DNA of 64,000 bases from Squalus acanthias (taxonomy: Eukaryota). Under the pieces are notes generated by a model that was not told where the DNA came from, searched no databases, and saw only the letters and a list, made by a program, of their open reading frames with translations. The DNA is taken from positions 81,468,001 through 81,532,000 of the forward strand of contig CM059435.1 of assembly GCA_030390025.1 (NCBI GenBank), read 5' to 3'. The stretch's first letter is position 1. Each line of letters opens with the position of its first letter. Both the position numbers and the translations under genes were made by a program. Positions 8,125 to 61,220 of the stretch are shown one piece after another.

Positions 8125-9560
8125 CTGTTAATTTGAATTGAAATTGTGCAAAAAAACTTTGAAAATGTATTAAAGATTTGTTGCTTAATTTGAAATTGGA
8201 TTTGAATTCTCACCCCAAAGGGTCCTGACCTATGAAATCTTCTGCTTAATTTGAATTCAACCTAATTCAAGCAGGCCAGAGCAGTTTACCCTCCTGGACT
8301 ATTCAATCTCATTTTGCTGCAACAGGCAACTGCATTCACCGAAGAGTTTGGATGTGAATCTGTTTCTGCATCTTAAATCAGTGCTTCAAAAACTGTGCTG
8401 GTCGACGTTTGGGGATGCAACTGATGTTACCACAAAAAGTGTCAACAACTGGGTGCTTGATAAAATTCTGGAAATTTAGCTCACTCTAAGCTCACTTCTT
8501 TAATGCTGGTGGAAGTGGTCTTTTGAACCAGCTCCATCCAATCAGAATGCAGCGTTTATTAATGAAAAATGCTTAAATTGGAAGCTAAGCAGTGAATTGT
8601 GCTATAATAAAAACAGAAAATGCTGGAAATACTCAGCAGGTCAGGCAGCATCTGTGAAGAGAGAAACAGAGTTAACGTTTCAGGTCGATGACCTTTCGTC
8701 AGTGAATTGTGCTCATGGTTTTTGGTAGCGGGCCTGTGAGGGACGGGGAGGAAGCTACTGGTGATTGACAATTACAGCCCCCACCCCGCCCTATGTTTTT
8801 ACGGTGCTGTTATTCCGGGTGATCGGCTACGTCCCTTTGATTGAAGCATAGCATCGCAAAGCAGCAATGTCACCTTGAGAGTTGACACACTCGGCTCGCG
8901 GGAAGTGCCTGTGTCTGAAAGCAGAACCTTGCTATTTACTATTTTACACCGTAAATTCATCCCACCAGCAGAGTTCGCGGCTGCATCTGACACAGTTAAG
9001 GATTTCACACGGGCGCCAACGATCACCTCGGAAGCAGTGAACCTCGCTGAGACCACGAGTTATCTGTTGCAACTGCCGGCAGACACGAGTTTTGAATCCA
9101 TTATCAGTGTTGATCAGGTAGTCCTGAAATCTGGATTGCTGACCGGCAGAGAAGTTGTAGATGCTGTGGACAGGAATGCTGCTGCCAGCGGGAGTGAGAA
9201 TGAGGAAGAAGTGCAAGTGAGTCGGAGCAGACGGAGGTGGATGAAGCAGCCCCTACCATGGCCATGGTGTCCAGTCTGTGCGATGGCTGAGGAAGTGGAC
9301 GATAACTAAGCCAGATGTGCCGATGGGACTTTTGTCTGGGCTACATTCTTGGTGGATGAATATGCTTCTGGCAGCAAGCAACCCACAATTAGAGTTTTCT
9401 GTGAAATGACCAAATTTTGCGTTGCGCAACTTGTACAGTGTTCAAGTTGCAATAGTTGCTTTGATGGTTGATGGCATATGTTAGTGTTCTTGTAGTGTTT
9501 TGATGTGCTGTTTCATTAAAATGACTCAATTTGAACTACTGGATAATTCATTTAAAAATC
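8125..9560 (+). mobile_element. Decayed pogo/Tigger DNA transposon (internally deleted DDE transposase)
   Basis: FFNAGGSGLL (~FNADETGLF) at ~8495-8525; KLLVIDNYSPHP (~LLLDNAPAHP) at 8752-8787; acidic C-terminus FESIISVD...GLLTGREVVDAV...SENEEE in ORF 8875-9309; taatttgaa subterminal repeats. Confidence 0.72.
8604..8702 (-). mobile_element. Penelope-like family A mini-insertion carrying a hammerhead core
   Basis: 14-bp direct repeat cagtgaattgtgct (8590-8603, 8700-8713); minus strand reads CTGACGA-A-AGGTC-atc-GACCT-GAAA-CGTT-AACT; homologous to 23112-23205. Confidence 0.85.
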
Positions 9561-9761
9561 ATTTAAAAAATGACAGTAGACTCTACATGGATAAGACTTT
9601 GAAGAGAAAACAGGAGTTGGGGATGTCGGAGCCTTGGCCTCAGCTCACGATCTATATCGCACTAACCATTCCTTTATTGTTCATGCTGTTCAGTCATGCA
9701 CTCACTGATATCAAAGCTTGCATTAAACAAAGAGGCACGTCAGTACTTTGGAGGTCACATG

Positions 9762-10031
9762 CAGAGCCGGATTAAGAATTCTTGGGGCCCTGGGCTCAGA
9801 CAACATTCGGGGCCCCTCCGCACAACACCACCACCAAACGTGTGGTAAAATGCATGAAGAAATAGGCCTGGACAATTCATACACACTGCACTAATACAGC
9901 AATTGATGTAACGTACTATGATTAAATGAAACTAATCGAGCGGTTGTCTGCAGTTTTTCTGTTATGGGGAGTTCTAGCAGGGGCCCCATATTTGGCTGGA
10001 GCCCCGTAGGTCCGAGCGTTAGTCTGCCCTT
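9762..10031. mobile_element. hAT-type MITE
   Basis: Imperfect TIRs cagagccggattaa / ttagtctgccctt; repeated subterminal ggggccc motifs; no coding capacity; TSD degenerate. Confidence 0.6.
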
Positions 10032-10311
10032 AGCTGCATGGCACCAAGTTGTAATAAGGACTTATTGGTTACACGTCTTCTCTTTCTGAGTCTGAAGGTT
10101 TGCCAGGAGATGCTGAGTGAAGAGTCATTGATCAGGAGCAACCATGTACCTCTCACCACACCCTGTCATTCAATCTCACTCTGACTAGCAAAAGCACAGA
10201 TACATCCACACTGGGGGAATTTCCAAGTGGGTTTGAAGACAGTACATTGAGTACACCACCTGGCACAAGTGAGCAAGTGAAGATGGTAGAAGAGAAGCTG
10301 GAATCACCTGG

Positions 10312-10460
10312 TTATTAAAGGGGGTGCAGCAACAGAGAGACCTGGGGGTGTATGTACACAAGTCTTTGAAGGTGGCAGGGCAAGTTGAGAAGGCTGTTAA
10401 AAAGGCTTTATAAATAGAGGCATACAGTACAAAAGTAAGGAAGTTATGCTAAACCTTTAT
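10312..10460 (+). mobile_element. CR1 RT fragment
   Basis: QRDLGVYVHKSLKVAGQVEKAVKK...YKSKEVMLNLY. Confidence 0.85.
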
Positions 10461-11110
10461 CATCTCATGTGGCCTCGCTATCCCCTCCATATCCATCACC
10501 AATAAGGCAATCTCCGACCATTTCCTTATATCACTCTCTACCCATTTCCCCTTCCCCCTCCTAAACCCACTTTTTTTCATATCCGCCCCGGAAAAAACTC
10601 TCCCTCAAGTCCCTTACCACTGCACAGTCTAATTCCCAACCACCTAGCCTTTGGCCTACAATTCTTCATGACATCTCTGCAGCTACTGACTTACTAAATC
10701 ACACCCTCTCCACCACCTTTGATGCCCTTGTCCCCACTAAAATCATTACACTCTAGTCATTCCCCCGATATACCCCTCATCTTCACTCCCTGAAGTCCAA
10801 GAGACGCAGACTTGAACGTCTTTGGTGAATAATGGTCTAATCATCCATCACTAGATTTGACTAGATCATATAAAGCACTATTGGGTCCTGCTCTCCATCA
10901 GTAAAACCGTCCATTATTCTAAGATCATCCAGGACGGCATAAAATACACCAGGCTTCTCTTCACCACTAACCATCTCCTCAAACCACCCTCCCCTGCCTC
11001 TTCCTCCCTCACCTCCAACAATAAATGTGAGGAGACCAACTCCTGCTCCTTTGATCCCCTTCCTTGTCAACTCCTGACTACTCAACTGCATTTCCTTACC
11101 CCAGTGTTCT
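10461..11110 (+). mobile_element. L2 ORF2 endonuclease/linker fragment
   Basis: C/T-rich sequence collinear with L2 copies at 35.0-35.45 kb (minus) and 61.9-62.4 kb (tccacc..tttgatgcccttgt). Confidence 0.75.
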
Positions 11111-11149
11111 TTTTACCATTAATAACCAAACAATTGGCATCTAGTACCT

Positions 11150-12020
11150 TTAATGAAGGAAAACATCCCAAGATATTTTGCAGCAGAATAAAAGCTTTAG
11201 ATGCTCAGCATTTATGGATGATTTTGGAGAGGTGACCAAAAATTTGGTCAAATAGATGAATTTTGAGAAAGCTTTAAAAGGTGGGGAAGGAAGTAGAGTC
11301 AGAGGGGTTTGGGAGGGTGTTCCAATGAGTAAGGCCAAGGAGCTGAAGGTGGATTGGAAGGAGGAGATTGTACAGGAGACCAGAGGATGCAAGAGGACAA
11401 GGGCAGCAGGTGCATGGGAACACCACCACCTGCAAGTTCCCCTCCAAGTCACGCACGATCCTGACTTGGAAATATATCACCATTCCTTCATCATCGCTGG
11501 GTCAAAATCTTGGAATAAATGCTGGCCCTGCCAGCGACGCCCACATCCAATGAATGAATAAAAAAAAGAGATGTAAGGCTGGATAAGTTTGCAGAGGTAG
11601 GGTGGGGTGAGGCCATGAAGAAATTTGTAGATGAAGACAAGGATTTTAAATGTGATCCACTGGGGGATGACGAGCTGTTGTAGGACAGTGAGGATGGGAA
11701 AACAAGACTTAGTGCAGAACAGGATGCAAGCAGTGAGGTTTTGGATGGTTTGGCACTTACGTAAGATGGAGGTTTGGAGGGCAGCAAAAAGGCCAAAGGA
11801 GAAGTCAAGATGAAAGCTTAGAAAAGAATTTTAGTAGCAGTGTTGGTAAGGTAGGGCGGTAGCAATGTTGAAGCTAGAAGTAAGAACTCTGTTAATGGAT
11901 CGCATGTGGGGTTCGAAACTCAGCCATGGGTAGAATAAAATGCTGAGTTTGTGTACAATCTGGTTCAAGCTGAGTGAGTAGCCAGGGAAGGAGACCGAGT
12001 CATTGGCAAGAAGGCAGAGG
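11150..12020 (-). mobile_element. Old L2 3' portion, interrupted by a LINE tail at 11392-11568
   Basis: Antisense L2 3' motifs (ggtgaccaaaa.ttggtcaaa, ggggtgaggccatg, LSFEPHMRSI). Confidence 0.75.
11392..11568 (+). mobile_element. CR1-group LINE 3' end with A-tail (internally deleted)
   Basis: RTRAAGAWEHHHLQVPLQVTHDPDLEIY; ends aatgaatgaataaaaaaaaa; same family as 25290-25550. Confidence 0.75.
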
Positions 12021-14367
12021 GTTTGATTCACTGATAAAAAAAACAAGTTCTGTTCTGTGAATCTTTCCTCATAAATCCCAAGTCTGTAAATTCTACTACT
12101 CCGCACTATTACCATAATTCATCTGACGCCCAATCACGAAGGAAAATAGGTTTACATCCCCATGACTTTTAATTTAGAGAACTCATAAACGGAAATAGCC
12201 TTGTGTCCTAATGAAATGTAATCTCGTTGTATCATTAAGAGCAAAGGCACTGGACTTAACTTTCAAAATCTGTTTTTTTTTAATGACCAACACAATTCCG
12301 GTTCGAGTGTTGAACAAAATGAATGTTTCTTACTGGATCTTCAAAGTCAATGATCAGCCCTAAGGATTCTTCCGAGATGCCAGCAAATGTGTTCTTAATT
12401 ACACGCTCCAATGACATTTAATATCGTTTACCCTCATAACTCGATTATTTAAAAGTCCAGTTCGCAACTGCAAAGTAATTGTTGCTTTTATTTCAATGTT
12501 CTGGAGAGTGCTGTATATTTGTTCTCCAGCTGCATCTAACATCAACCGAATGGGAGAAAAGGAGCTTGTTTTCTGTCTATGCAACAGCCTGCTTAATATA
12601 CTCCCAAATATCAAATCCATATCAGTTCCCTGAAAGCCCATTCAAAACTCGTCGTTCTGTGACTCTGAAAAGACGAGAGTATGGCAATCATTCTGGTCTC
12701 AACTCCACACAAACCTGTTGGGTAGAATAATTAGAAGGAGATGCTCACCCGGATCTTTGGATATCCTTTCAATTCAGGTTGCTCGCGCTCAAATCTCCTC
12801 CCATTCCATGGCAACAAGCGGTTTCAAAATAGATTTCAATGTAATGTTATTTTTGATACTAGATTGGCTGAGCTATGTTGTACTTGTTCATAGTGATTGA
12901 TATTCACGTTACCACGTTAAAGACAGCTGGCTACACGGAAAAGTTTTGGCGAAATCAAAAAAGTCATAGCGTCTCTGACAAGTGATGTGATCGCGGTCCC
13001 ACTTCCTGCTCCGGCACCTGTGAGAGTCCCTCTTCAAACGTTTAGAATAGAAAATGATCTAACGGTGTGTGTGGAATTCTACATTTAGATACAGCAAGAA
13101 TGAAAAGTTGGATTAATATTAAATGCTTCCTGAAAATCCAAATGACACTGGGGAGGGGGCGTTCGACAGTTCTGGAAAAGTAAAATATTAAAAGATGCTC
13201 GAATGCTATGCAACTAATTTAAGGTGTCTTGGTGCCGAAAAAGATCGAAAAGAGCATTTGTTGTTATTTTGATCCATCTACTCCAGAGACTTTTTTTTAA
13301 AATGAAAACGTTTTGTTGGGAAGTTGTCCTTCTCCTCGAGGTAGTTTCTCGGCGATGTTCTCGGAAATGAAGCGGTTAATATTCAGAATATAACCAGCTC
13401 CACATCCGCTCAGCCGCACAGTGAAACAGGATGAATGGATGTTGGAGAAAAGAGGGACTCACATTTAACCATTTTCCAAATTGCGTTGGGTGTGTTTTCT
13501 GGAATGATGCGGTTTGCCAGCGGCGCCAAATACACTGAATTAAAATGCTTGAAATAACTAAATCCTAAAATAACGCCAAAATACAGCAATTAGTCTGTCT
13601 GTTTGAAAAGCAGCAAATCCACCAATGTGGTGACCTTCACGGTAAACAAGCTGCGCTCCACACCATCTCAAAGGTTTTGTGAGCGAGTTTTAAAATACTC
13701 CATTCGAAATAGCGCAGGCTATAAGTAAAGGAGGGACTGTCCTTCGTTCTGACCCGTTACAAAATTAGCGACAGTCCAAAGAAGAGAATGATATTTTCTG
13801 GATATACGCCCAACTTTAAAAGAAGCAGATCCTTGAAGATGCGGCGTGAGGGGGTTTAACTCTGTTCTTTGGACTGCCTGTCTGCTCTCTGTCTTTAAAC
13901 TGGGGCTTTGAAGTTAATGAGCTAATGGTTCAGAAACAGACTTTTACACACGGAAACTGAAGAGACCAAGGGCCAGGTATCGACGGGATTGTAAAGTATG
14001 TCCATGTTTCCAAATGTCTTATGTTTGAATAACTTTTCTACTTACCTGTATTATCTAGTTTAAATAGGACAGCGCCACCTTAGGACGTGGAGGCATATCG
14101 AAATGGTTTCTTGTGGGGTTATTTGGGAAAGAGGACACTGAATAATCCCACTGGAATAGTAGGATGTACAATGGTACTAAGTCTAATGATAATCTGGGGT
14201 GTACATGGCACTGACAGATGAGTAATACAAACACGGCTGAAGGACAAACTCCATAGGATCTAATCTCTAGAACATTGGTTCTCTATAGAATCATGGAAAG
14301 AACGCCATTATCTTAAATTGCAGTTCACCTTGGCATTGACTTATTACAGTGCACACCTCTCACGCAT

Positions 14368-14730
14368 GTGTCAGCTTGGATCAGTAGTATTACTCTGGCC
14401 TGAGTCTGATGGTTGTGGACTCAAGCTCCATTACAGGACTTGAGAGCACATAAGTACTGAGAGAATGCTACATTGGTGGAGGTGCCATCTTTGAGATGAG
14501 ACGTTAAACCTAGGCCTATCTGGCTGCTCAGGTGGCCAAAGATCCCATAGCCTTATACTATGAACAGGAAGCTCTCCAGAGGCCCTGGCCAATATTTAAC
14601 TCTCAAGCATTATTTCCGCGTTTGCCTACATAATAGTAGTGCCTACATTTCAAGTAACTCATTGGCAGTAAAGCCTTTTGGGACGTGAACGGTGCTATCT
14701 GTATTCTGTATATATAAGTTCTTGCTTTCG
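14368..14730 (+). mobile_element. Deu-domain SINE
   Basis: tRNA-like head, Deu core ggaggtgccatctttgagatgagacgttaaacc, L2-like tail. Confidence 0.82.
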
Positions 14731-16057
14731 GAGTTACTGCAGCACCATGATGACCGCCATTGAGTTACACCATTTAAGAATATGCACTACGGAAAGTCTA
14801 TTGCACAAAATAGTTTATTTGCCAAAGTTGTCCTTTGTATCAACAATGAAATTGTTTATGGCTACTTTGAGTGCAACCTCGGTTACAACAAACTCTGATT
14901 ATAAACCAGCCTTTAAAACAACTCCTACTCTCCCCCGGTTCCAGTAGAAGCTACACTGTATCAATAAAGCAGCTCAAGTCTCATGAAGAGGAAGCTCCGA
15001 TAAGAGTTGGAGTTCATCAGGAGTTTATAATGTGAGGACGCACTGTTACTATGCTGTGGACTGTTGCGCATTTAACAGTTTACAAATGGCGATAGGCTGC
15101 AAAGTGCTAAAATTAAATCTATTGACGGTATTGTTATAGTTTTTCGATTAAACATATTTTACATTGTTATCACTTCTTCCTGTCCATTTCTGTAATACAA
15201 ACAATGCAACTAATCTACTCACTTCTGATAGACTTTGATTCATTCCTGGATATTAGATATCTCGAATGCTCAGGTTCTGTGCTACTCCTTATCTTCCAAT
15301 GATCCGTTTCCTGATAAAGGTTGAGTAACTCGATTTATTTTATGAAATACCCATAAAATATTGTTACACACATACATGTACACTTTCCATAACGGTCTCC
15401 CCTTTTAAAAATAATAGGAATTTAAGGATTAATCTCACCTGAAATAGACAAACAAACCATCTCAGATTCATTGCACTGGAACACTATTTCATCGCACCTG
15501 CATCGTGATGATCTTTGTCATTGTACAAATTGAGAGTATAATTCTGTGCTGCAACTGTGGGATGTGCTGGCTTTGGAGAGTTCTACTCTTTGTTTCAACG
15601 TAACAAACTACAGGAGGAAAAAAACTGCATTTGTTCCTGCTGTGATCCCAAACTAGAAATCGCATGCTATCACTGGTGTGTGACCTGGCCCCGCCATTCC
15701 AAAACCATCCAGTATTTCGTTCGCTGCTTCAGTCACAAAAAACGAAATCCGAACGCTAACTTGGCAGCAGAGATCAGACTAGATTGCGAGCTCGACCGGT
15801 TCCAGGGGTTGCTTTTGATTATTCCTGTACATAAAGTGTACATTTCTTTGATATTTACTACTTGTTTACCTGATGAATTCGTAGCATCGGCAACTTTGTT
15901 TATACCCACCCAATATCATTGATTGTAGCACATGTTGGTTTGCCACGTATTGTGTAACAGCTATTGCTTCGGCACAAATGAATTGTAACCTTTTATTTAA
16001 TAAACTCGTCAAGGACATATTTTTTGAAACCTGGCTAGATAAGTTACATTACAACAT

Positions 16058-16162
16058 ACGTTACAACAGTGACTACACTCCAAAAGTACTTCATTGGCTG
16101 TAAAGCGCTTTGGGACGTCTGGTGGTCGTGAAAGGCGCGATAGCAATGCAAGTATTTCTTTA
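16058..16162 (+). mobile_element. SINE 3' tail fragment (Deu-SINE/L2 tail)
   Basis: ttacaacagtgactacact...ttcattggctgtaaagcgctttgggacgtc...gtgaaaggcgcgatagcaatgcaagt. Confidence 0.75.
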
Positions 16163-16719
16163 TAAGCGGTGTAACGTATATCACTCCTCCAAAATAAACC
16201 TGTGTAAAATGTAATTGGTGTAATTAAAGCAATTGTAATAACGATCTTCCATTTGCGAAGTCTTATGCAGCCATTTTCTTTATTTCAAACGTTAAATACC
16301 CTAAATTATTCAATAATATATAAAGAGGATCGTTCATATGCCAGTTGATATATCGTATAGCCTCCACAAAATGGACCAGTAGGCGTTATTTAAAGATAAA
16401 GGGAATAATAATGTTATGTTTTGTGAAATTAATATAAATTCATTGATTCGCAAAAAATATATTTCTCCAAATTCGTTTCTCATTGGAACATAGTTGTGTA
16501 TTTTCCCGAACGTCGCCTTTTAAGCATAACAGGAAGCCCAATCCCCTTCTACAAAAGATCCAGTAAAAGTGTTGGGATATCTCTTTCGCAATGCCATGTG
16601 GTTTATATGTAGATAGAACAAACAGAGGAAATTATTGACTGGCCCATCAGGATAATGCATTAATCACAAATGAACAAGGAGCAAGGCACACGGTGTAACT
16701 TGGCCCATTTGTTTGTACA

Positions 16720-16935
16720 TAAGTACAAATACTGTTGTGTATAGACCTGTATGCAGGCATGCCTATATCCATGTAGGCGTGTCCTATAATCATGTTTGTG
16801 TATTTCAGCTGTAGATATGTTTGTCTGTACACATACATGTATGTGCAAGTATAAATCTGTGTGCTCGTGTATTCGCGCGCATATCTAGGAGTGGAACTCT
16901 ATATATAGATAAATATAAAATACATTTCATATACA
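16720..16935. repeat. TG/TA-rich low-complexity tract
   Basis: Degenerate tgta/tgtg/tata repeats. Confidence 0.5.
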
Positions 16936-17809
16936 GTATATAACAGTCCTCCAAAGCAGCACAATGCCGTACTTAAGAATAAACTATTGTCAGATATCAC
17001 TTTGAGTAACACAGCTGATCAATAAATTGGAAGCCTATGTTCTCGAACACATGTCGTTTCACAGGGAAATACGAATGTGACCACGAAAAAATAATTAGCG
17101 AATTCGCTTCCTAAAGAAGTCTTCAAAAGAGACTTCAACATATTGCAAAGGTGTTCAGGAAATTTAGAACTGTTCAAAATTGGTGTAAAAATTGAGGGAA
17201 ATTCAAGTTTATTCTGATATGAAATTCGCTGGTTTTCACTTTGTTAGAAAGGCAGGGATAAAATGTTCCACAATTCTGTCAACAGACTGGGAGGTCCAAT
17301 TTTACCCCGGGTAATCGGAAAGCCTCGGATAAAGATTTCAAGTGAAAGAAACTTAAGCAAAATCGAGTCTGAAAGCTCGGCTATGGGCGCTGAACGGACG
17401 AGATAACCGAAACATTTGGATGATTTCGGAAATGTGGGTGGGTACAGGACAGGCGGTGTGTGTGGCGGAGGGATGGCTGGAGAATTTGTGATGGTGAAGT
17501 GTTTTTAATTGCTTTTAACTGCTTTATTCAGGTATTATTTTCTACTTATTGTTATTGTTGGGGCGAATGAGCACAACGTTATAACACGACCAATACCTAA
17601 AATAGAGTACCCCGAAACTCGGAAACTCTAATCTTCCCGGATTTCATTTGCAGTTTCAACCCTGATAAAAATGTATCAATACTAACTCCCCCTCCCCTCT
17701 AGTTTTTTTTAAGCTTTGACAGTAATACTACATTTGTTTTGTTGTGAATGACTTTAATTTATATTTGAGATCCGGGACAGCCTCGCTTTAAGGCGTTAAC
17801 CTGTCACTG

Positions 17810-17860
17810 GGCTGTGCGCAGGGCGGCGGGGACAGCGAGTGCGCAGGCGCGGCTCTCTGT
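17810..17860 (+). promoter_or_regulatory. Core promoter: GC box and NRF1-like site
   Basis: GGGCGGCGGGG at 17821-17831 and TGCGCAGGCGCG at 17840-17851, at the CpG peak, followed by leader-like sequence. Confidence 0.55.
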
Positions 17861-19118
17861 CTCAGGTAGCAGTGTGAAGTCAGTCGGAGTCCGGGAGCAG
17901 CGCTTTACTGAAACGAGTCTGCTCAACTTCAGCAGCTTGACCTCCAACCACCGGACCTCGGCACACAGGCGAGGACAATGTCTCCTGCACAAAGATCAAG
18001 CAGCAACGAGTCGAGCTTCCACTGATCCAAAAGGGGCGGAGAGAGGGGAAAGCGCCAGCTAGATAAGGCAGAGTTCCTTTTTAAAAAAACAATAAGGCAG
18101 AAAAAAAGTTTTTGAAAACTTTTGCGATACTTTGCAGAAGTTCGCACGTTCAACTATAAGTGTACTTCAGAGATATACCTGCCCCCCCCGGGGGGCTGAG
18201 AGTGGCCGTCGGCTCAACGCGATTCTTGGGCTGCTGGATGTGTTACTTTGTCAAAGTGAGGGGTGCATGTGTGGACCAAAATAGCCAGTTAGTGGAGACT
18301 GGGAACTCGAGAAGAGATCCGAGTGATCGCAGCTGGGAGCATTGGAAGTGGGGATTGAATCGATTTGCTGTTGGTGGAGAAGGTTACTAAAAAAAAACCG
18401 CCCGGGAGAGAAGGTACTTTGTGTGAGCCTTGTGATTTGTTTCAAGTGGGCTCACGTTTTCAGCATTTTCTTCAGCAATTCATGTGACAGCCAGTTTGTG
18501 AAATGGCTGAACCGCGTTACAACCGAGCCGGGCTCTGACAGACAAGGCTGGCAAACAAAAATACACAAACAACACGGAATTGATGAAGTGACACTCGATT
18601 TGAAAACAAATAATAGCTCAGTCCCTCGGGTAAAATAGCCTGCGTCCAGAGGGAAGGTACAATAACAATAATTCAAATACAAAACAAAAAGTAAAAGCTT
18701 GCAAAACCAAAAGCTAACTTCAGTCATAAGACAAAAGTGGAATAAAGTACCAGAGTTGCAGAAAAAAACCTAACAAGCAGTGATAAGGGGGAGAGATCGG
18801 CTGAATGTGTGTGAGGGGGAAGTGAGAACGAGAGGAGTTCAAGGGTTGGTACGTCTGCCGGATCTCTTTATGTGCTGGTGTTGGTGTGGAGTTATGGATC
18901 TAAACCTGAAAGAGTTTCAATAACAGGTGCAACATGCTCACACAAGCCAGCTCCATTCCTCTTACTGCCCTGGAATCCTGAGAACCAACTGCTTCATGGT
19001 GACTTTGTTGGCTTCTTCATCCTGAGAATTTGATTGTAGCCAGCACACTGCTTTCCAATAGAAGAAGTCTGATTAACCGCAAGAGCTTGGATATTTACCA
19101 GTAATCCTGACCCTGAAC

Positions 19119-19124
19119 ATGCAG
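19119..19124 (+). CDS. Probable first coding exon end (Met-Gln) of a gene with a long 5'UTR and a first coding intron >44 kb
   Basis: gaacATGCAG|GTGAGT: A at -3, near-consensus phase-0 donor, in-frame TAA at 19074-19076, 1.3 kb downstream of the CpG promoter; no downstream exon recognised in the window. Confidence 0.45.
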
Positions 19125-22100: not shown

Positions 22101-22339
22101 AAAGTATCATCCATTTCCCGTTATATATAAATCTTGATCGAATCGCACAATCCCAATTTATCACCAGTCCTCCCATTACACATAAATCCTCTTCCAATGA
22201 CTCGATTTCAATGTCCCATCCGCTCCCATGACAGAGAAACTCCGATCCAATTACACAGTTGCCGTTGTTCCATCTACGTCCATTCACAGAACTCCTGATT
22301 AACTTGTGTCATCCCTTTGTACCATCAATACTACTTTAA

Positions 22340-22710
22340 AGCCATCTTGATCTGGCTTAGTTGGAATTGTGCTGCCTGGTGTGAAATTCAGCCACACAGA
22401 CCAGGAATGTCCACAGTTCAATCCCCCAGCCAGTGCTACATCAGCTGATGGTGTGGTGATTTCCCTTCACATTCCTGGGCTTGAGAAGCGAAAACTAGCC
22501 AAGCTCCTGCTCTTGATAAGGACCCAGTGACCCCTGTTGGAAGGTGCAATTGTCTGAATGCTGGGTGAGGACAGGATTGGGCTCAACTGTGATGCCACCA
22601 GTGGTCAGGGAAGCCTGCCAGCACTTGTTTAGTCTCGCACTAGTCAAGAACGACAACTTGTATGAGATGCTGGAGGTTGGCCGGTGTCTGTAGAACATAT
22701 ATCCGCATGA
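22340..22710 (+). mobile_element. Unclassified SINE-like repeat (resumes at 23255-23290 after a Penelope insertion)
   Basis: Same family as 2310-2740 and 36130-36780. Confidence 0.55.
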
Positions 22711-23239
22711 AACAACAACAGAAAACGCTGGAAAAACTCAGCACCTCATCTTCCGATTAGGCACTTTACAGCCTTCCGGACTCAATATCGAGTTCAACAA
22801 TTTCAGATCATAACCTCGGCCCCTACCACACATATATATATATATACATTTTATCCACCCTTTTGGTTTGTGCCTTTTCCCTTTTTTTTCTCTCTCCCCC
22901 ACAGCAGCTGTCTCTCATTCTGCCAGCATTTCACACTTCACACTTCTGAGCCACCTTTTGTTTCTTAACCTGTCCTATTACCATCTCGTCTTGCCTTGAG
23001 CATCTCTTAATGTCTCTACTTACCATAGACCACCCCTTTTGTTCTTTTATTTCTCCCCCCAGCCTCCCCCTTGCTTTTTTATCTGTTTCATTTCCTGCTT
23101 TTTTCTCAGTTCTGACGAAGGGTTTCGACCTGAAACGTTAACTCTGTTTCTCTCTCCACGGATGTTGCCTGGCCTGCTGAGTTTTTCCAGCATTTTCTGT
23201 TGTTGTTTCAATTTTCTAGCATCCGCAGTATTTTGCTAT
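22711..23239 (+). mobile_element. 5'-truncated Penelope-like element (family A) with inverted terminal segment
   Basis: GIY-YIG-type C-terminus HLIFRLGTLQPSGLNIEFNNFRS* at 22742-22813; 36-bp inverted repeat 22708-22743 vs 23175-23210 (1 mismatch); 15-bp TSD 22696-22710 / 23240-23254 (2 mismatches). Confidence 0.88.
23108..23143 (+). ncRNA. Minimal type I hammerhead ribozyme motif (family A)
   Basis: AGTT-CTGACGA-AGGGT TTCG ACCT-GAAA-CGTT-AACT: stem I AGTT/AACT, stem II with TTCG loop, palindromic stem III AACGTT, GUU cleavage triplet. Confidence 0.72.
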
Positions 23240-23467
23240 CATACATCTGCATGAGTCAGCTTCAGTAGAGGAGGGGAAAACATCAAACAAAAAAACTCCT
23301 GATGAAGTCACAATATATCTTTCCTATTCAGTTCTACCATAAAAGGAACAATCTTGACATAACCAGAGAATCTGAGATAGACATATAATTCTGATATGGC
23401 TACCAAATTTATGAGGAAATTAGTTTAGCTTTTATTAATAGATAAAGTTTATGGTAGAATGCATACT

Positions 23468-40468: not shown

Positions 40469-40479
40469 TATCTGTTGTT

Positions 40480-47220: not shown

Positions 47221-47447
47221 ACATAGAAACATAGAAACTAGGAGCAGGAGTAGGCCATTCGGCCCGTCGAGCCTGCTCCACCATTCAATACAATCATGGC
47301 TGATCATCCAAATCCAGTACCCTGTCCCTGCTTTCCCACACAGAATCCCCATCGAGCCTGCACCGACACATATCCCACCCTATCCCTGTAACCCCACGTA
47401 TTTAATTCCCCCTAACATATCCCATCCTATCCCCGTAGCCCCACATA
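47221..47447 (-). mobile_element. 5'-truncated HE1-like SINE inserted in the CR1
   Basis: Nearly identical to 40027-40253; short atgaa duplication at the junctions. Confidence 0.92.
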
Positions 47448-51129: not shown

Positions 51130-51590
51130 GACTTTCACTGTCTGAATTGAATCTGAATTCATGTCCCAGAGGGGAAGGGAAAGTGATCTAACACACTGTG
51201 ACACTCAGTCGCTCATCAAAGAGCAGAGTCTTAATTTAATCTTTCTGGGATCGGTTTGAACCCGTACCCCAAAGGTGAAACAGCAGTGTTCGAACAGACT
51301 GTGACACCCAGTCCTTCAGCAATAAACCAGAGAGCTTCATTTCATCTGTCTGGGTCAGATTTAACCCATGCCCCAAAGGGCAAAGGAAAATGTTTGAATA
51401 TTCTGTGACACCCAGTCACCATTAAAGTGCGGAGATATTTGTTTCATTTATCTGGGCTGAATTTGAACACATGTCGGGTGGGGGAGAAAGACTGCGAAAA
51501 CAGGGTCAGCCAATTAACATCACAGAGCAGAACTTTCATCTGGGCTGGAAACAAACCTATATTCTAGAAATGAAAAGGCAATAATTAATA
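51130..51590 (-). repeat. Degenerate tandem array (~104-bp period, ~5 units) of tRNA-like SINE heads
   Basis: ctgtgacac at 51196, 51299 and 51403; minus-strand unit ggactgggtgtcacag...tttcacc...gggttcaaa..cccaga. Confidence 0.65.
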
Positions 51591-52712
51591 TTCTGACTTC
51601 ATGGTCCATTATGGTATTAACTCATATGCAGAACACAGCTGGATTTCCAAGGTGTGCTGCAGGTGGGCAAGGCCCCCTGACAGAAGCACAGTCAGTGCAC
51701 CACCAGTTCCTTATCTTGTTTTGTTTTTAAATCTGTCTTTCTCCTCTCAACTACCAAATATAATTTCCTTTTTTTTGTTCGGTCCATCCTTCTTTTAATT
51801 GTGGTATATTTTCAGGATAGTTTTGGTTGAAAGCTTATATCTTAAAGTGGCTGAAGAAATACAATTTTTTATTTTTACTAGAGTAATTATAACAGGAGAA
51901 TAACAGCTTTGAGGAAAACCTTTTTTTTAAATGGTAAATTTCAATAGTTTGTCCGCGAGCACAATCCTTTAACCAATTTCTGAACAAAATGGTAGTCTGC
52001 TGTGGACAAATCCTACGGACAACATTGTACCCAGGGCAAACATTGTTTCTCCTTCTTTCACCTGTATCAGCACTGAATTATGTGAACTGTTCCCTCTGAC
52101 CGAGAAGTTGTTTTATGATTGATAGTTACAGCATAAAATCAGGATGACTGCACAGTAAACAGCACATTTAATCAGCTCTATAGTCATTTGTTTTATTGAC
52201 AACTGGCATGCAACAGCAAACACCTGGTGTCAGAAGCGAACATAAAAGACTTGGGTTTTACCAGAATGGTTACGAAGGAGATACAGATGAAAAGAAAGAA
52301 CATTTGATCTCAGAAAAAAAACACCTTCCTTTTGCCCTTGTGCTTTTCAGCTATTAAACACTGTATTTCATGTGCATGGAATTACTTCAATGCTAATGCT
52401 GCATTGTGCTTTTTGACTATAACTTGCTCTACACTATCAGCCAATTAGACCACGTTAAATACTAGGGACCATGAATACAGCCATCCCACTGGCCACTGAG
52501 TTTTCAAACTATGTCCTTCCCAGCAAAACATATTAGTGGCAAGTAATCTAGCATGTTATTGGAAAAGGTTTGTAACAATATGGGATGACTGGGAGCATCA
52601 TATTTCAGTAAACAGCCAAAGGATGTCGGAACTGCTACACAGTTTACCTGCACTGGGAGAGACGCACTGAAAATACTTGAATGGTCTCCAGCTTGAGGCA
52701 GGAAAAGAGATT

Positions 52713-53456
52713 GGGCCAAAAATTGATGCCGCTACGCGAGAGTACGCACTGTGTACTCTCGCGTATTCTCTCTCCAATTGCCGGTTTTCTGCATGCACTG
52801 CGCATGCGCTGAAAACCGGCACTTGGTTTTTGGAAAAGGGGGCGGTTCCTCGGTGCAACGCGTGCACGCTACAGGCTGCGCGCACGCTGTGCACTTCGTG
52901 CTTTGGACGCGCAGGTAAGGACGGAAGATTTTAGAAATGAAAAAAGGAGGAGTAAGACCCACTTTTAACAAGGTAAGTAGTGAATTAAGTATTATTTTGA
53001 ATTTTTTTTAACAGGTATATCTTTTTTAGAGACTTTAAAGACAGGTAAGTTTATTTTTATAACTTTTTAAAAGATTTTAAATTTTTTCAAAAATTTTATT
53101 TTTTATTTAAAATGGTTAATTTATTTAACTATACTTATTTTATTAATGTGATGGTTTTTAAAAAAAATTTAATTGAGGTTTAGCTGTTATTTTGGGGGTG
53201 TGTAAGATTCATAGCTTTCACAGCACGTATGTGAAACTTATGAATGGAAGATGGTGTGCTGCCATTGGCTCTAACTGAGTCACGTGATCCCACAGCTCGC
53301 ACGAATTCACTACGCCGGTGGGATACGCAAGCACTGCCCAGCTGATGTCTAGAACATCAAGTTCGTGCGAGCTGGATCTGAAAAAGCCAACGCGGAGTGA
53401 GAGATCGCGCCTGCTCCTTACCCCCGCGGGAACAGAGCGAGATCAATTTCTGGGCC
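52713..53456. mobile_element. Harbinger-like MITE with CpG-rich arms and AT-rich core
   Basis: 15-bp TIRs gggccaaaaattgat / atcaatttctgggcc (13/15); imperfect 3-bp flanks att/aat. Confidence 0.78.
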
Positions 53457-53609
53457 AATTTTTCCTGAGATGTGATGATTATGTGTTAGGGAACCTAATG
53501 AAATTGATGAATGCATCATTTCCAACAACTGCACCTGATGAAGTAATAGTCATATGTAGCAAGCCTCTGTATCTTAGCTAGAAAATAGAGCTGCAGCTCT
53601 TTGCTGAAA

Positions 53610-53740
53610 TTGTCCTTCTGACTCAATTGGTAGCACCCTCTGAGTCAGAAGGTCAAGGGTTGAAACTCCATTCCAGGACTTTAGCACATAATTTAGCTGG
53701 CACATCAGTGTACTATTGAGGGAATATTGCAACTGAACAG
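53610..53740 (+). mobile_element. Deu-SINE 5' fragment
   Basis: ggtagcaccctctgagtcagaagg...ccaggactttagcacataat. Confidence 0.7.
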
Positions 53741-53879
53741 AGATGAATTGTGTTCAAATTGAAAAAGAACTTTCGGCCATTGATTTGGGGTTGGAGAAAT
53801 GTGAGCAGTAAACAAGTGGAAAGAAAATGACTGTAAAAAGTGACCACTAACAGCTTGAAGCCATTTTTGAAAAGAGTTC

Positions 53880-55750
53880 ATTAGTGCCAACATCTGGCTC
53901 GAAAGATTGATGTTCTATCTGCAAAACTAAGAATCTATGCCCCAAAATTCCTTGGGATTCCACTGATCTCCCACTGTAACTCTGGCAAATATCACCCACA
54001 AGGTGGAGGCAGGCACTGGGAGTTCCAACTCATTAGGCTGGATTGGAACCCAGTACGCCGTATCAGTTGAGGCTTGCCGGCCTCCACAATGCCCCACAGG
54101 TGGGACCAGGAAAGTGGAAAGAGGGACAGATCAGCACTCTTACCTAGGGGTCAAGAGGACTATGGCCAGGGTCGAAGTGGGGTAGCTTGGGCAACCACAT
54201 GAGCTGTGCCAGAGTGTCTGACAGCCATGGGCAGGTGGATGCTGGAGATGTGCTGGATGTGGCGCTTGTGCCTGCCTTTCTGATGGTTATTAGTTTCCCC
54301 TTCTCCCCAACTGACCCCATATACTCCCATCGGGGTAAGCGCTAGAAGGTGGTGTGATCCTGGTATGTCTGTTGGAACTCGACCCATGGATTTTCGACCT
54401 CCTGATGTTTACAAGAGAGGCAAAGCGATATTCCTTACTGAGAAGTTGAGCAGAGTGCACCTACCTCACATCCAAAAAGGCCAAAAGTAAGAAAGTTTTG
54501 CTCATTGACACAAGATTTGAAACAATTTTTTTAAAAAAAGATTGATGTGCTGTAATACTTACTGCTATCCGAGGATGGAGTAAACAAAATTCCCCAGCTT
54601 GCTGGAGTAGATGAAGGCCTGACGTTATTGAGAATAACAATAAGGAAAGGATGGCCTGATTCAAGTGAAGCAGGTCACCCCATATTGTGGTGTAATTCAA
54701 CATTAGAGATGAACTGAGCATACAGCGCAGACTGATATTCAAGGGTGTTCAATTTGTTACATGGAAGAATATGAGAGAAGAAAGGTGCAGCATTCACTCA
54801 AGCCACAAAGGAATCCAAGGTTGTCTTTGGAAAACCAGAGAGATGATTCACTGATGAACAAGAACATTGCGATGCACACATCTAGATTTGATATAAGCAA
54901 GCAGATTCAAGCCAAGCAGCAAAAGATGCCCTTTTATAAGTCATCAAATGCCAGAAAAGGCCTGTGATTTGTTCAAAGCATATGGAAAAAATTATCTCCA
55001 TCTTCTATTCGCCTAATTTCTTTGCGATTAACCAACTGATTTTATTTTTAAATGGGAAAGAAGTCCTAGCCAAGATGAAAGCTCATCCTCATGCCTGGCA
55101 TCCAGATGATGTTATATCAGACAGTGGGCCACCATTCAACTCCAGGAAATTCCAAGAGTTGGCATAACAATATGAGTGCAGTCATGTCACCAACTCGCTA
55201 AAATTCCAACAGTTAAAGGCAAGGCAGAGAACTCTTAAAATTACAAAGGCAGTCCTGAAAAAAGCACACGACCCTTCTCAACTGGTACATTACATTGGGT
55301 GAGATATTGAAGAGCTCACCAGCTAAAAGACTGTTTGGCAGACAAACCAAGACGTACCGTTAGCTGACTTCTGAACTTGATCATAATAAAGGATGCAAAA
55401 GAGAAGCTTTAACTGAAAACAAGCCTGACTCTAAATATTGGTACCAAAGAACGTGATAAACTTAGAAAATGAGAAATTGTCAGAGTTCATCCAGTAGGGA
55501 AAAGGAATGGATGCTGGCAAAAATACAACAGCAAATGGATTTCGTCCTTGCAAATAGAAACCGAAGATTCAAAGATCATGTGATTCACCTGCAAAGCACA
55601 GTAGAGCCGCCATTTGTAGAGAGAACTGAGAATGGGGTTATATACCCTGTAATACAAGTGATGCCATCCAGGCAGTCCACAGTCAAGAAACCACACAACA
55701 GAGTAGCAAAAAACCATGGCCAGTCATCAGCAGAACAGTGAACCAGAACT
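53880..55750 (+). mobile_element. Heavily decayed Gypsy-type pol (RNase H/integrase) remnant
   Basis: FNIRDELSIQRRLIFKG (~54695-54750) and HPDDVISDSGPPFNSRKFQELA (55098-55164; ~GIP..VSDNGPQF.S.EF); interrupted at ~54.0-54.4 kb. Confidence 0.72.
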
Positions 55751-56139
55751 AAAGGCAGCCAAACAACAGCAGTCCCAGATAGAAACCGCTTCCAACACCA
55801 AAAAGAATAAGCCCTGTATCCTAGCAACAAAGAATAACAAGAGTAGTGAGAAAACCACATAAGTGATTTTATTTACCAGTGACTTTGTAGCTATTTGAAC
55901 GGTTCCCATTGGAACTATGGGACTGTTCAGACTTAATCATTTTGTTTTTGATGTAAAGGTTTAGTTTTCTTCCGAGGAGGCAGATGTATCGCTATGGAAT
56001 TGAAGCCTTGTATCGATATGAATCATAAGATGAGCCCGAACTGTTCCCTTTGATCCACAAGTCGTTTTATGATTGCCAGCTGCAGTGCAGAATCAAGATG
56101 GCTACACAGAAAAGAGCATATTTCACGAGCTCTGAACGC

Positions 56140-56560
56140 TTTGAATCACAGAATTTTACAGCACAGGAGGCTCTCAAAGAGCTATCCGCTTAATCCTATT
56201 CCCCTGCCTTTCACCCAAACCTTTTATTTTTCTCTTTCAAATATTTATCTACTTCCCTTTTAAAAGCTATTATAGACACTGCTGCCACCACTATGTCTCA
56301 TGTGGCATTCCATGTCCTAACAACTCTGCGTAAAATAAAACTAACCTCTCCCTTCATTCCTCTGGTGATGATTTTAAATTTATGTCCTCTAGTTACTGAT
56401 TCACCGAGCAGTGGAAATAGTTTTTCCCTGTTTACTTCATGCGAACCCCTCAAATTCTGAACAACTCGATTTTATCCTATTAACCTTCCCTTTTCTAATG
56501 AGAAGAGCCTCTGTTTCTCATGTCGCTGCTCTAACTAAAGCCTCTCATCCCTGGGATCAT
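56140..56560 (-). mobile_element. Old CR1 3' end
   Basis: Antisense tail cacagaattttacagcacaggaggc and collinearity with 32580-33000. Confidence 0.75.
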
Positions 56561-58463
56561 CAGTTGTTCATTACTAAGTGTCCTGCAATAACAAATGTTA
56601 CAAACTGCATTCAGAGTGTGTAGTGGCATTATGGGGCAGAAGATGTACTTTGTGCACTTGCCCACAAATGAGCTGGCCTTGCCCATAATATGATGTCAGC
56701 TCATTATAATATTAAAATCCCCCCTCCCCCAGTGCCGTGCTCAGTATGTGTTGGGAGAGTCCATGGTGTTTCCAGCACCAGAAGCTTTGTATATAACTTT
56801 TCTATGGCGGTGGGGCAGGGGTGGTGGGCAAAGAAAGGAAGGATGATGGCAGCAGCAGCACCTTGGATTTGAGACCAACATTCACAAAAGGAGGAGGTGG
56901 GCTGGGTAACCTTAATGGAAAGTGCGGCCCATTTGGGAGGAAACCCTTTTGTTTTACATAGGGCCTCCATTTCAGCGCCCATTCCAAATGAGTGCTGTGC
57001 ATCTGGAATGATACTCGGGCTTCCAGTTGCTTTATGTAGAAGTCCCCTCACATCCATAAAATTTGAGGCTTGAATTGGCCTTGGACATAGTTTGTGCACT
57101 GGCTCCCAGCACACTACATGCCAGCTGCTTGTGTATGGGCATTCTAAGAACCTGAGGCACGTTGAAGGCCGTGTGCCTGATAATACAGGGTGCCCAGCAT
57201 GGCATTATCAAACCGTAGGACTATACATAGGGAGTCTAGATTTGCAACACAACTTCCACTGGAGTTCAGCGCATTCACTAATCACAAATCAATACAAGTG
57301 AAAGCAGGAAGCAGCAGCCAAGCGCTTCTCCATGGTAAAACTGGAGATGAGCGAGCCAGGGCCACAAACGCACCTCCTGACATCGGACTTAACAACAGCA
57401 TTGGCAGAGGACTTGAAGCAAACATGCCTGCATTCTTGGCCACAAAATGATACTTGTTGCAGGAAAACTAATTGCCAAGTAAAACCTGTAAAGGAAAATA
57501 GCACAATAAATTCAATTTAATGATTTTGGCTGGTATGAGAATTTGAATTTTTATATCTTACGAAGAAAGGCTCATAGGACCTATAGTATAGTCTATGCCA
57601 CTATAATTTGGAAACAAATCCCATTATGTAAAAATGTTAATGCATCACTTTCTGTATTAAGTATTTCACATCCCATGTACTTTATTCAAACATGTTCCCT
57701 TACTCTATGATGGGATAAATTACAGATATTATTCTCCCTTCTTTAGACTCTGTAGACATGCAGCTGGTCGACAGTCGCTCATCTAATGTAGATGGAGGCT
57801 CTGTCCTAGGATAGTTATCATTGGATTGTGAATTGTATCTTTCCTAGTCCAAGATAGTGATCCTGGAGCTCCAAAATCATAGAATCATAGAAAGTTACAG
57901 CACGGAAGGAGGCCATTTCGGCCCATCGTGTCCGCGCCGGCCAACAAAGAGCTATCCAGCCTAATCCCACTTCCCAGCTCTTGGTCCGTAGCCCTGCAGG
58001 TTACAGCATCCCAAGTGCACATCCAAGTACTTTTTAAATGTGGTTAGGGTTACTGCCTCTACCACCCTTTCAGGCAGTGAGTTCCAGACCCCCACAACCC
58101 TCTGGGTGAAGAAATTTCCCCTCAAATCCCCTCTAAACCTTCCACCAATTACTTTAAATCTGTGCCCCCTGGTTTTTGACCCCTCTGCTAAGGGAAATAG
58201 GTCCTTTCTATCTACTTTATCGAGGCCCCTCATAATTTTATACACCTCAATAAGGTCTCCCCTCAGCCTCCTCTGTTCCTAGGAAAACAAACCCAGCCTA
58301 TCCAGTCTTTCCTCATAGCTAAAATTCTTTATTCCTGGCAACATCCTTGTAAATCTCCTCTGTACCCTCGCTAGTGCAATCACATCTTTCCTGTAATGTG
58401 GTGACCAGAACTGCATGCAGTACTCTAGCTGAGGCCTAACTAGTTGAAGCATAACCCCCCTGC

Positions 58464-58621
58464 AATTGTAAGATACACATGCTTTGTTCTCTATCTATAT
58501 ATGCTTTGGCGATTCTGTATCTAATTTACTTCACCTGAGGAAGGAGCAATCGATAGCTCCGAAAGCTTGTGATTTCAAATAAAACTGTTGGACTATAACC
58601 TGGTGTTGTGCGACCTCTCAA
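58464..58621 (+). mobile_element. Penelope-like family B short insertion
   Basis: Interrupts CR1 between ataacccccctgc and tcttgtattc; 3' ~85 bp shared with 59540-59623; carries hammerhead motif and AATAAA. Confidence 0.75.
58531..58572 (+). ncRNA. Minimal type I hammerhead ribozyme motif (family B, copy 1)
   Basis: TCAC-CTGAGGA-A-GGAGC aatcgata GCTCC-GAAA-GCTT-GTGA: stem I TCAC/GTGA, 5-bp stem II, palindromic stem III AAGCTT. Confidence 0.72.
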
Positions 58622-59478
58622 TCTTGTATTCTGTGCCATGGCTAATAAAGGCAAGCATTCTGTATGCCTTCTTAACCACCTTATCTACCTGGCCTGCTAC
58701 CTTCAGGGATCTGTGGACATGCACTCCAACGTCCCTTTGTTCCGCTACACTACTCAGTGTTCTACCATTTAATGTGTATTCCCTTTCCTTGTTAGCCCTC
58801 CCCAAATGCATTACCTCACACTTAAAATGATTTAAAATTTAGTAGCAGCCAACACCACTCTGTATCTGAGACCCAGTGACCAGACCACAGCAAGTTGTCA
58901 GTAACTGAATTACCAATGCTGTTCTAGAGCTGAACTGCCCAGCAGTGATTGATTATGGCTTGTGATGATTTCCTCACCCTAATTTTCCTTCCTTTCCTAT
59001 TTAATTTTTGTTCTAAATATCCCTTCTCCAGACCACCCAACCTGGAGCTGGGTGCTCATTCAGAGATTAATTGATTTGAGCACTCATCCTTGCTACCATT
59101 TCATAAATGCTGATACATCAACAGATGACGCTGCCTGGCTTCCATTCCAAATTTTTGGGTTTACTCATATAATTATGAAGATTGCAAGATTCTAGCCAGT
59201 CAATTTACTGGAGAAGCATTTGAATCAAATCACTTCATGATATTAAAACCTACCTCTAGTCCAGATTTTTGAGTCTAATTAGCAGTTAGCAAAGTTCTGT
59301 CAGTCAATCTAGTTAAGAAGCATCTGAAGTGTTGTTTGAGGTATTGTAGAGCCACAGTAAATTGATTCTGCCAAAACTGGGATTTCCTCTGTTGCCTCAG
59401 TGTAGTGAACTTGTAAAGATGTTCTTTGGCAAAACGCTTTTGCTACATCTAGTGCACAGAGGAAATCACAGAGGAAAT

Positions 59479-61220
59479 TGGAAGGAGGAGAGCATGCCAT
59501 GGGATCTCAGAGACGCCGTAATCATGACCATCTTCAAGATGTACCTGAAGAAGGAGTGGAGCTCTGAAAGCTCGTAATTTTAAATAAAACTGTTGGACTA
59601 TAACCTGGTGTTGTGCGACTTCTCATCTTCAAGAAAGGTGACAAGTCCGATTGCGGTAATTACAGAGGAGTCTCCCTGCTGTCTGCCACAGGGAAAGTCA
59701 TCGCAAGAATCCTCCTTAATCGCCTTCTCCCAGTGGCTGAAGAGCTCCTCCCAGAGTCGCAATGTGGATTCTGCCCACTAAGGGGCACAATGGACATGAT
59801 CTTCACCATGCGTCAACTACAAGAGAAATGCAGAGAACAGCACCAACCGCTGTACATGGCCTCCTTTGACCTCACAAAGGCCTTCGACACCACCAACCAT
59901 GAGAGATTATGGAATGTCCTCCTCAAATTCGGCTGCCCTCAAAAGTTTGTCACCATCCTCCGCCTGCTTCACGACGACTTGCAAGCCGTGATCCTGACCA
60001 ACGGATCCACCACAGACCCAATTCATGTACGGACCGGGGTCAAACAAGGCTGTGTCATCGCACCAACGCTCTTCTCGATCTTCCTGGCTGCAATGCTCCA
60101 TCTCACCCTCAGTAAGCTCCCCGCTGGAGTGGAGCTAATCTACAGAACAAACGGGAAACTGTTCAACCTCCGTCGCCTCCAGTCCAGATCCAAGGTCATC
60201 CCATCCTCTGTCATCGAATTACAGTATGCAGACGACGCTTGTGTCTGCGCACACTCTGAGGCCGAACTCCAAACCATCGTCAACACCTTCACCGAAGCGT
60301 ACGAGAGCATAGGCCTTACACTAAACATCCGTAAAACAAAGTTCCTCTACCAACCTGCCCCCGCCACACAGTACTGCTCCCCAATTATCAAAATCCATGA
60401 CGAGGCCTTGGACAACGTGGACCACTTTCCATACCTCGGGAGCCTACTGTCAACAAGGGCAGACGTTGATGACGAAGTCCAACACCACCTTCAGTGTGCC
60501 AGTGCAACCTTCGGTTGCCTGAGGTAGAGAGTGTTTGAAGACCAGGACCTCAAACCCAGCACCAAGCTCATGGTCTACAGAGCAGTAGTAATACCCGCCC
60601 TCCTGTATGCTTCAGATACATGGACCATGTACAGCAGGCACCTCAAAGCACTGGAGAGGTACCACCAACGCTGCCTCCGCAAGATCCTGCAAATCCATTG
60701 GCAGGATAGGCACACCAACGTCAGTGTTCTCACTCAGGCCAACATCCCCAGCATCGAAGCTTTGACCACGCTTGATCAGCTCCGATGGATGGGTCACATC
60801 GTCTGCATGCCCGATACGAGACTCCCAAAACAAGCGCTCTACTCGGAGCTCCAACACGGCAAGAGAGCCCCAGGTGGGCAGAGGAAACGCTTCAAGGACA
60901 CCCTCAAAGCCTCCTTGAAAAAGTGCAACATCCCCACCGACACCTGGGAATCCCTGGCCCAAGACCGCACAAAGTGGAGGAGAAGCATCCGGGAAGGCAT
61001 CGAACACCTCGAGTCTCTTCGCCGGGAGCAAGCGGAAGCCAAGCGCAAACAGCGGAAGGAGCGCACGTCAACCCAAGCACCCCACCCGCCCCTTCAACCA
61101 CCGTCTGCCCCACCTGTGACAGAGACTGTAGGTCCTGCATTGGACTCATCAGTCACCTGAGAACTCATTTTTAGTGTGGAAGCAAGTCATCCTCGGTTCC
61201 GAGGGACTGTCGAAGAAGAA
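59479..61220 (+). mobile_element. Young 5'-truncated RTE-clade LINE
   Basis: KKGDKSDCGNYRGVSLL, PESQCGF, GVKQGCVIAPTLF, LQYADD, C-terminal CPTC...HLRTH; one stop (60525-60527) and one late frameshift; (GAA)n tail; 14-bp TSD gcacagaggaaatc (59454-59467, 61221-61234). Confidence 0.96.
59540..59623 (+). mobile_element. 84-bp Penelope-like family B mini-insertion with hammerhead motif (copy 2)
   Basis: Perfect 11-bp TSD catcttcaaga (59529-59539, 59624-59634); TAC-CTGAAGA-A-GGAGT gga GCTCT-GAAA-GCTC-GTA; removal restores the RTE frame VIMTIFKKGDK. Confidence 0.88.

Follow-up and report, generated by a model that had tools for sequence, protein, structure and literature searches.

A stretch of 64,000 nucleotides (nt) from Squalus acanthias (contig CM059435.1, positions 81,468,001 to 81,532,000), here called the window, harbours four minimal hammerhead ribozyme motifs in copies of two families of Penelope-like retroelements, designated A and B. 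The inserts in the window are the 3' ends, or pseudo-long terminal repeats (pLTRs), of these elements. Among sampled insertions of both families, 5' ends cluster at the front of the ribozyme core, leaving stubs made of the hammerhead and a short downstream sequence. These short inserts are probably run-off copies, initiated internally at the element tail and ending where an uncleaved transcript has its 5' end, likely a capped one. The RNA start that this interpretation predicts lies 4 nt before the hammerhead core in family A and 7 nt before it in most of family B. The stubs would then likely mark where element RNA begins, and they are probably not mobile on their own.

The elements, their ribozymes, tails and inverted arms are already known. 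A literature search, in which subscription papers and figures were thinly covered, revealed no account of a 5' breakpoint hot spot in Penelope copies or of an extra G there. A signal that places the start site to the nucleotide in both families would afford exact predictions for Penelope-like transcription and copying, and run-off copying would explain an abundant class of 85–140 bp repeats without invoking a new element type.

The 5' breakpoint cluster

Breakpoints were mapped in 179 stretches of 10 kb (1.79 Mb), taken at round positions on contigs C1–C17. Copies were anchored on sequence 3' of the predicted cut site, which returned 142 matches, 94 of family A and 48 of family B. An arm filter (30 nt, 84% identity) retained 115 arms and removed 27 family A matches; hand curation led to 55 family A and 33 family B insertions, each inverted twin being counted once, by its longer arm. 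Curation discarded one copy masked with N and five recurrences of a single, passively carried twin, and restored two copies split by another repeat. The twin concerned is a family A fold-back, with arms at about +7 and +49, that recurs six times (L098, L133, L168, L195, L197 and L212); because its flanks are identical, it is regarded as carried passively inside another repeat.

Positions are counted from C3, the first base of the core. Among the 71 insertions that reach the core, 30 have their 5' end between −13 and +2 (16 of 43 in family A, 14 of 28 in family B). The interval from +3 to +50 accounts for 10 of 53 ends in A and 4 of 32 in B, and the interval from −43 to −14 for 3 of 27 and 2 of 14, respectively. 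Per nucleotide, ends are thus 7.1 times (A), 11.9 times (B) and 8.7 times (pooled) as frequent between −13 and +2 as in the flanks. This interval was picked after the data had been inspected, and a best-window simulation was used as a correction: the observed count was reached in 35 (A), 0 (B) and 0 (pooled) of 20,000 simulations. When only ends defined by a target site duplication (TSD) of at least 10 nt or by an inversion are considered, the ratios are 7.4 and 12.0, and 9.4 for the 22 ends together. The original prediction of a 5' breakpoint shared by both families and located where the core begins therefore stands: the cluster is non-random in both families and ends are not evenly spread, a lower density occurring inside the motif as well.

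The cluster might be an artefact of alignments that end where a conserved ribozyme meets diverged upstream sequence, or of only core-bearing copies having been noticed. Upstream sequence does diverge between subfamilies, the boundaries were curated by hand and the interval was chosen with the data in view. However, copies were anchored beyond the cut site, the effect persists both with boundaries set by TSDs or inversions and in the best-window test, and the whole-genome pattern counts described below are independent of alignment. An artefact is extremely improbable.

Extrapolated from 30 stubs in 1.79 Mb to a genome of 3.7 Gb, rough totals are ∼180,000 insertions and ∼60,000 stubs, the latter being a minority class among ordinary truncated copies. 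Inverted arms and twins are frequent in the sample, the tail is optional and TSDs are present. Insertions of endonuclease-bearing (EN+) Penelope-like elements are reported to have the same traits, including partial tandems and inverted 5'-truncated arms; truncation is frequent there, but the available text of these papers describes no hot spot with an extra G (PMC8557442, PMC3846280). Inverted twins often have arms of almost the same length (−93/−93, −478/−478, −283/−282 and −7/−6 among L062, L075, L084, L040, L178 and L213), which suggests fold-back or coupled synthesis rather than two independent stops.

The predicted RNA start and its alternatives

The edge of the cluster carries an initiator-like sequence. 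In 12 of 13 family A references the A of a YYANWYY match falls at −4, and in six of nine family B references it falls at −7; those six all display an 8/8 TATA match 30–32 nt upstream of the A, scored, like the initiator, against the consensus motif. The family B subfamily represented by L092, L035, L184, L125 and L049 has ∼6 extra nt between the TATA-like and TCA(C/T)T region and the core, and its stubs, few in number, end further upstream, at −6 to −12. For a rotifer pLTR, a putative TATA box together with an initiator has been published (PMC3846280).

A second signal is an extra G directly before the initiator-like A. At A(−7) of family B, whole-genome exact counts of the preceding base are 1873 for G and 229 for A, preceding A excluded in both. 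Control positions give G:A ratios of 55:45 at −9 (first 100 listed of 520 matches, by eye) and 47:53 at −4 (first 100 listed of 216 matches, by eye, with a slightly different pattern), and the excess at A(−7) relative to the control is marked (Fisher p 2e-23). Family A shows a weaker bias of the same kind, with 65 G among the first 100 listed of 1029 matches against a genome share of 0.45. Of the first 21 listed loci with a G junction, 20 were read by eye, and none of these continues into the parent; 18 of the 20 are inverted twins, in 8 of which the partner arm cannot supply the G. In about three quarters of the family B G matches listed a T precedes the G, a pattern that would fit the addition of C and then A to the end of the complementary DNA (cDNA).

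These signals can be accommodated in a single scheme. The pLTR promoter would start RNA at the initiator-like A, and the element protein would prime internally at tail sites ∼85–100 or 120–135 nt downstream. Because the copy of the priming site lies near the 5' end of the RNA, cDNA would be complete after 85–140 nt, and such stub cDNA would resemble retroviral strong-stop DNA. The reverse transcriptase (RT) would add a C opposite the cap, often followed by an A; joining would trim 0–9 nt or pair the cDNA end with a second arm, giving rise to solo stubs with TSDs or to fold-back twins. Longer copies would stem from RNA that reads through, or from priming at the downstream pLTR's tail, and stubs, devoid of a TATA box, would be dead ends. 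The mRNA would open with the ribozyme as its first structure, in a position to take off the cap upon pairing with a second copy.

Published systems provide precedents for parts of this scheme. The element PAc, a Poseidon of Anolis carolinensis, is reported in vitro to prime internally at tail sites, to extend both strands and to use uncleaved RNA; its two 3' ends lie ∼35 nt apart, as do those of families A and B, and both-strand products and copying from uncleaved RNA would be further points of likeness (Frangieh et al. 2024, PMC11167929). The available text of that study maps RT start sites, not in vivo stops. At full-length LINE-1 copies, a non-parental G at the 5' junction is ascribed to the mRNA cap (PMC11702581), to which the G described here bears a likeness. 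The LINE-1 G marks 6-kb full-length copies, whereas here it would mark stubs of 85–140 nt, because priming would be internal and near the RNA start. The RT may also add a C wherever a template ends; even so, the site would correspond to an RNA 5' end.

A more far-reaching version is tentative and rather doubtful: the hammerhead would be the very first structure of a capped RNA polymerase II transcript, the strong-stop-like cDNA would integrate tens of thousands of times and the ribozyme would act as a switch. If this were true, the genome would record the element's start site to the nucleotide; the ribozyme, paired with its twin from the downstream pLTR, would remove the cap and release a unit-length RNA, and the RNA would cease to be translated and become a template that is circular or forms tandems.

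A number of observations weigh against run-off from a capped start. Three of the nine family B references have no initiator match at −7, the family A TATA matches are weak (5–6 of 8) and the G bias of family A is weaker than that of B. The partner arm can template the G in 10 of the 18 twins. Read-through dominates: the parental bases at −9/−8 are kept in 14,227 exact matches, whereas those with a purine at −8 number at least 2102. Full-length copies start at −145 (L081) and −21 (L215), not at the predicted position, and solo family B stubs with long TSDs, taken alone, amount to 3 ends (p 0.07), which is too few. The edge of family A, a pyrimidine tract followed by CAG, is also readable as a 3' splice site. 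In D. virilis, Penelope is described as having a promoter devoid of a TATA box and an intron that precedes the ribozyme (PMC2377424, PMC4209133), and PAc is a Poseidon, whereas the families studied here carry a CX4CxxC linker of Neptune type. Lastly, the start site is predicted from genomic copies; the four sets of assembled contigs of presumed RNA origin that were compared with family B cannot show starts, ends or strand, and their depth steps, which copy number confounds, carry no weight here.

Stalling offers a different explanation: the RT may halt or fall off on a longer RNA, either at the preceding pyrimidine tract or at the front of a hammerhead that is folded and perhaps dimeric or bound by protein. 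In families A and B alike, the cluster overlaps the 5' stem I strand with a spread of ∼15 nt, some ends fall at lower density inside the motif, and the anole ribozyme is reported to fold with protein help (PMC11167929). A structure stop is disfavoured because it leaves the single-position G unexplained: the excess occurs only at the base before the initiator-like A. Moreover, the four motifs of the window fold no better than shuffled sequences, and the family B subfamily in which the TATA-like box and TCA(C/T)T are displaced upstream by 6 nt has three of its four ends at −10 to −12, a small number. Stalling is unlikely.

The boundary could instead be a 3' splice site, by analogy with the D. 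virilis Penelope, whose intron ends at helix I, so that spliced or part-processed RNA would yield the stubs. Besides this published precedent (PMC4209133, PMC2377424), an AG ending at −2 follows the pyrimidine tract in 11 of 13 family A references. By contrast, no family B reference has an AG before +5, several family A stubs include the AG itself, and TSDs adjoin the stubs without any common upstream exon sequence. Four contig sets contained no splice-type joint for family B, a weak point as only 145 nt upstream were covered. We judge splicing a very unlikely source of the boundary.

It had also been proposed that the ribozyme plus a short tail may be a preferred or autonomous-size mobile module, which would be a self-propagating unit copied from earlier stubs. 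Its abundance (∼60,000 stubs per genome, extrapolated), the recurrence of both ends and the retention of the tail where the RT starts speak for such a unit, and read-through copies could in principle be copied again. However, the TATA box lies outside the stub, which leaves no promoter inside, the 5' ends are spread over 15 nt, each copy has a junction of its own (none of the 20 runs into the parent) and stubs are a minority class. Furthermore, the sequence variants of stubs match those of long copies, and the sole repeated stub, the six-copy twin with common flanks, was carried inside another repeat. The idea of a self-propagating module finds no support in this comparison and is highly improbable.

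Hammerhead anatomy and prospects of cleavage

A two-strand scan of the window for CTGANGA, a stem II of at least 4 pairs, GAAA, a palindromic mini stem and UH found exactly four motifs, with C3 at 8702 (minus strand), 23112, 58535 and 59545. The four motifs of the original prediction are thereby recovered against a chance expectation of 0.01 (maximum 1 in 100 order-3 Markov simulations). An Rfam scan of the window at E up to 1 gave zero hammerhead matches. Three motifs are on the plus strand and one on the minus strand; a listing of long frames in the window did not disclose the host gene or the direction of the intron in which they had been placed. The motifs and the element copies that contain them are as follows.

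8590..8603: left TSD, 14 bp, identical to 8700–8713
8604..8699, minus strand: tailless family A stub of 96 bp that runs from the core of the hammerhead up to the first of the 3' ends
8670..8702, minus strand: minimal hammerhead 1, core 8702–8696, stem I without its 5' strand, predicted cut after 8674
8700..8713: right TSD, of which 8700–8702 are shared with core C3–G5 (microhomology)
22701..22710: probable left TSD, 10 bp, one mismatch to 23245–23254
22711..22743, minus strand: short inverted arm of family A (element 3' end), found by blastn
22739..23244, plus strand: family A copy with the end of the GIY-YIG open reading frame (ORF), pLTR, hammerhead and tail, starting ∼373 nt before C3
23108, plus strand: initiator-like A, predicted transcription start
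23108..23143, plus strand: minimal hammerhead 2, stem I 23108–23111 / 23140–23143, core 23112–23118, predicted cut after 23139
23245..23254: probable right TSD, pairing with 22701..22710
58460..58622, plus strand: family B copy of a young subfamily, starting 75 nt before C3, no clear TSD
58496..58503, plus strand: TATA box match, 8/8, putatively functional, 32 nt upstream of the initiator-like A at 58528
58531..58572, plus strand: minimal hammerhead 3, stem I 58531–58534 / 58569–58572, core 58535–58541, predicted cut after 58568
59529..59539: left TSD, 11 bp, pairing with 59624..59634
59540..59623, plus strand: family B stub, 84 bp, beginning 5 nt before C3, within a reverse transcriptase frame of a long interspersed element (LINE)
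59542..59576, plus strand: minimal hammerhead 4, core 59545–59551, 3-bp stem I, predicted cut after 59573
59624..59634: right TSD, pairing with 59529..59539

The minimal hammerhead anatomy is borne out by compensatory changes between families and subfamilies. In 23 distinct motif sequences 96.6% of cells are paired and seven of nine pairs show two-sided changes, the 23 sequences representing a few family-level events and not 23 independent ones. The mini stem is CG in family A and GC in family B; cleavage is predicted directly after GUU or CUU/CUC. The 10.1–11.1 pair is A-U or G-U in family A and G-C in family B, except in the copy at 59545 (hammerhead 4), where G-U replaces it. An extra A after A9, at first attributed to three of the motifs, is present in all four and in 47 of 47 tabulated copies; an extra nucleotide between 9 and 10.1 has already been described for minimal hammerheads (PMC4209133).

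The closest counterparts are the minimal type I hammerheads of metazoan Penelope-like pLTRs (Cervera and de la Peña 2014, PMC4209133), which share the core, the extra nucleotide between 9 and 10.1, a 4-bp helix I, a palindromic 15.2–16.2 and a mostly solitary occurrence in truncated elements. They differ from family A, which has A-U or G-U rather than G-C at 10.1–11.1, and in the available text of that paper 5' breakpoints are not mapped and no transcription start is placed at helix I. Non-LTR retrozymes (bioRxiv 10.64898/2026.07.22.740005) likewise have a type I hammerhead, derive from Penelope pLTRs and are non-coding, but they are reported as head-to-tail tandems, whereas the copies described here are solo or inverted with TSDs. 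No head-to-tail tandem hammerhead units occur in the window or in the 179 stretches, where copies are solo, inverted or pLTRs of long elements.

The further proposal that such copies scatter active self-cleavage sites is doubtful, because stem I has lost its 5' strand in many stubs, family A is without G10.1-C11.1 and published minimal hammerheads are either inactive as monomers (PMC4209133) or, as in the anole element, require the element protein (PMC11167929). Thermodynamic folding of the four motifs, with z between +0.2 and −1.5 relative to shuffles, lends no support to stable monomers. In vitro, insertion is reported to proceed without any need for the ribozyme (PMC11167929), whose function in Penelope-like elements has been called unclear (PMC8557442).

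Cleavage as the origin of the stubs was rejected because they include the core and span the cut site. In the 179 stretches there is no excess of ends at the predicted cut site, with at most one candidate per family. Two apparent family A ends at this position turned out to be later insertions of another repeat and not true ends. The repeat is ∼750 bp long, has short inverted ends and is inserted in the TTA at the predicted cut site of family A (L135:1284–2062, L222:2303–3093). L236, L086 and L186 have similar junctions, and their upstream half is not found within 2.5 kb.

Parent elements and copies in the window

Full-length parents confirm the Penelope-like origin of both families, carrying an RT, GIY-YIG and pLTRs. 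In the family B parent L081 two pLTRs 3139 nt apart flank an ORF with RT and GIY-YIG, and in the family A parent L215 the pLTRs are 3198 nt apart and likewise accompany RT and GIY-YIG. The RT of L081 matches Pfam RVT_1 (E 5e-9), and the family A frames align to L081. The GIY-YIG assignment derives from a VY..YIG motif read directly in the ORFs of both families; a Pfam search gave no GIY-YIG match at E 0.001. Frameshifts are present in both parents seen, L081 having one.

Both families have a CX4CxxC linker between the RT and the endonuclease domain, and a CX2-5CxxC linker in this place is given as characteristic of Neptune and Nematis (PMC8557442). Judged by this motif, families A and B are EN+ Penelope-like elements of Neptune type; an assignment to Poseidon was considered and dropped on the same ground. 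Their proteins are ∼25–40% identical and both are Penelope-like, so the description of two unrelated families does not hold. Each family has two 3' ends, near +97 and +131 in A and near +84 and +121 in B. One family B subfamily (L051–L080) is very young: 27 of 42 matches listed are 100% identical over a 153-nt query, and this near-identity suggests recent activity.

In the window, two short copies with clean TSDs were correctly recognized at the outset, with inserts of 96 bp (14-bp TSD) and 84 bp (11-bp TSD). The stub at 8604..8699 and the pLTR of the full-length copy L215 share 91% identity over 97 nt, and the stub at 59540..59623 is 86% identical to the L081 pLTR. The copy at 58460..58622 is 100% identical to the 3' pLTR of L081 and lies in a LINE fragment (repeat D7). 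Several family B copies are hosted by LINE fragments, namely those at 58460–58622 and 59540 in the window, L081 and L115; the host fragments are presumably CR1-like and RTE-like.

Some minor features complete the picture of the window. A 28-nt minus-strand match to the end of the family A tail at 3115–3142 is a possible fifth, coreless remnant. The family A copy contains a second TATATA-rich tract at 22825–22850, just past the ORF stop and ∼280 nt upstream of the core, which could be another promoter or a simple repeat. At 51145–51417 there are three diverged repeats of family D15 with a spacing of 103–104 nt.

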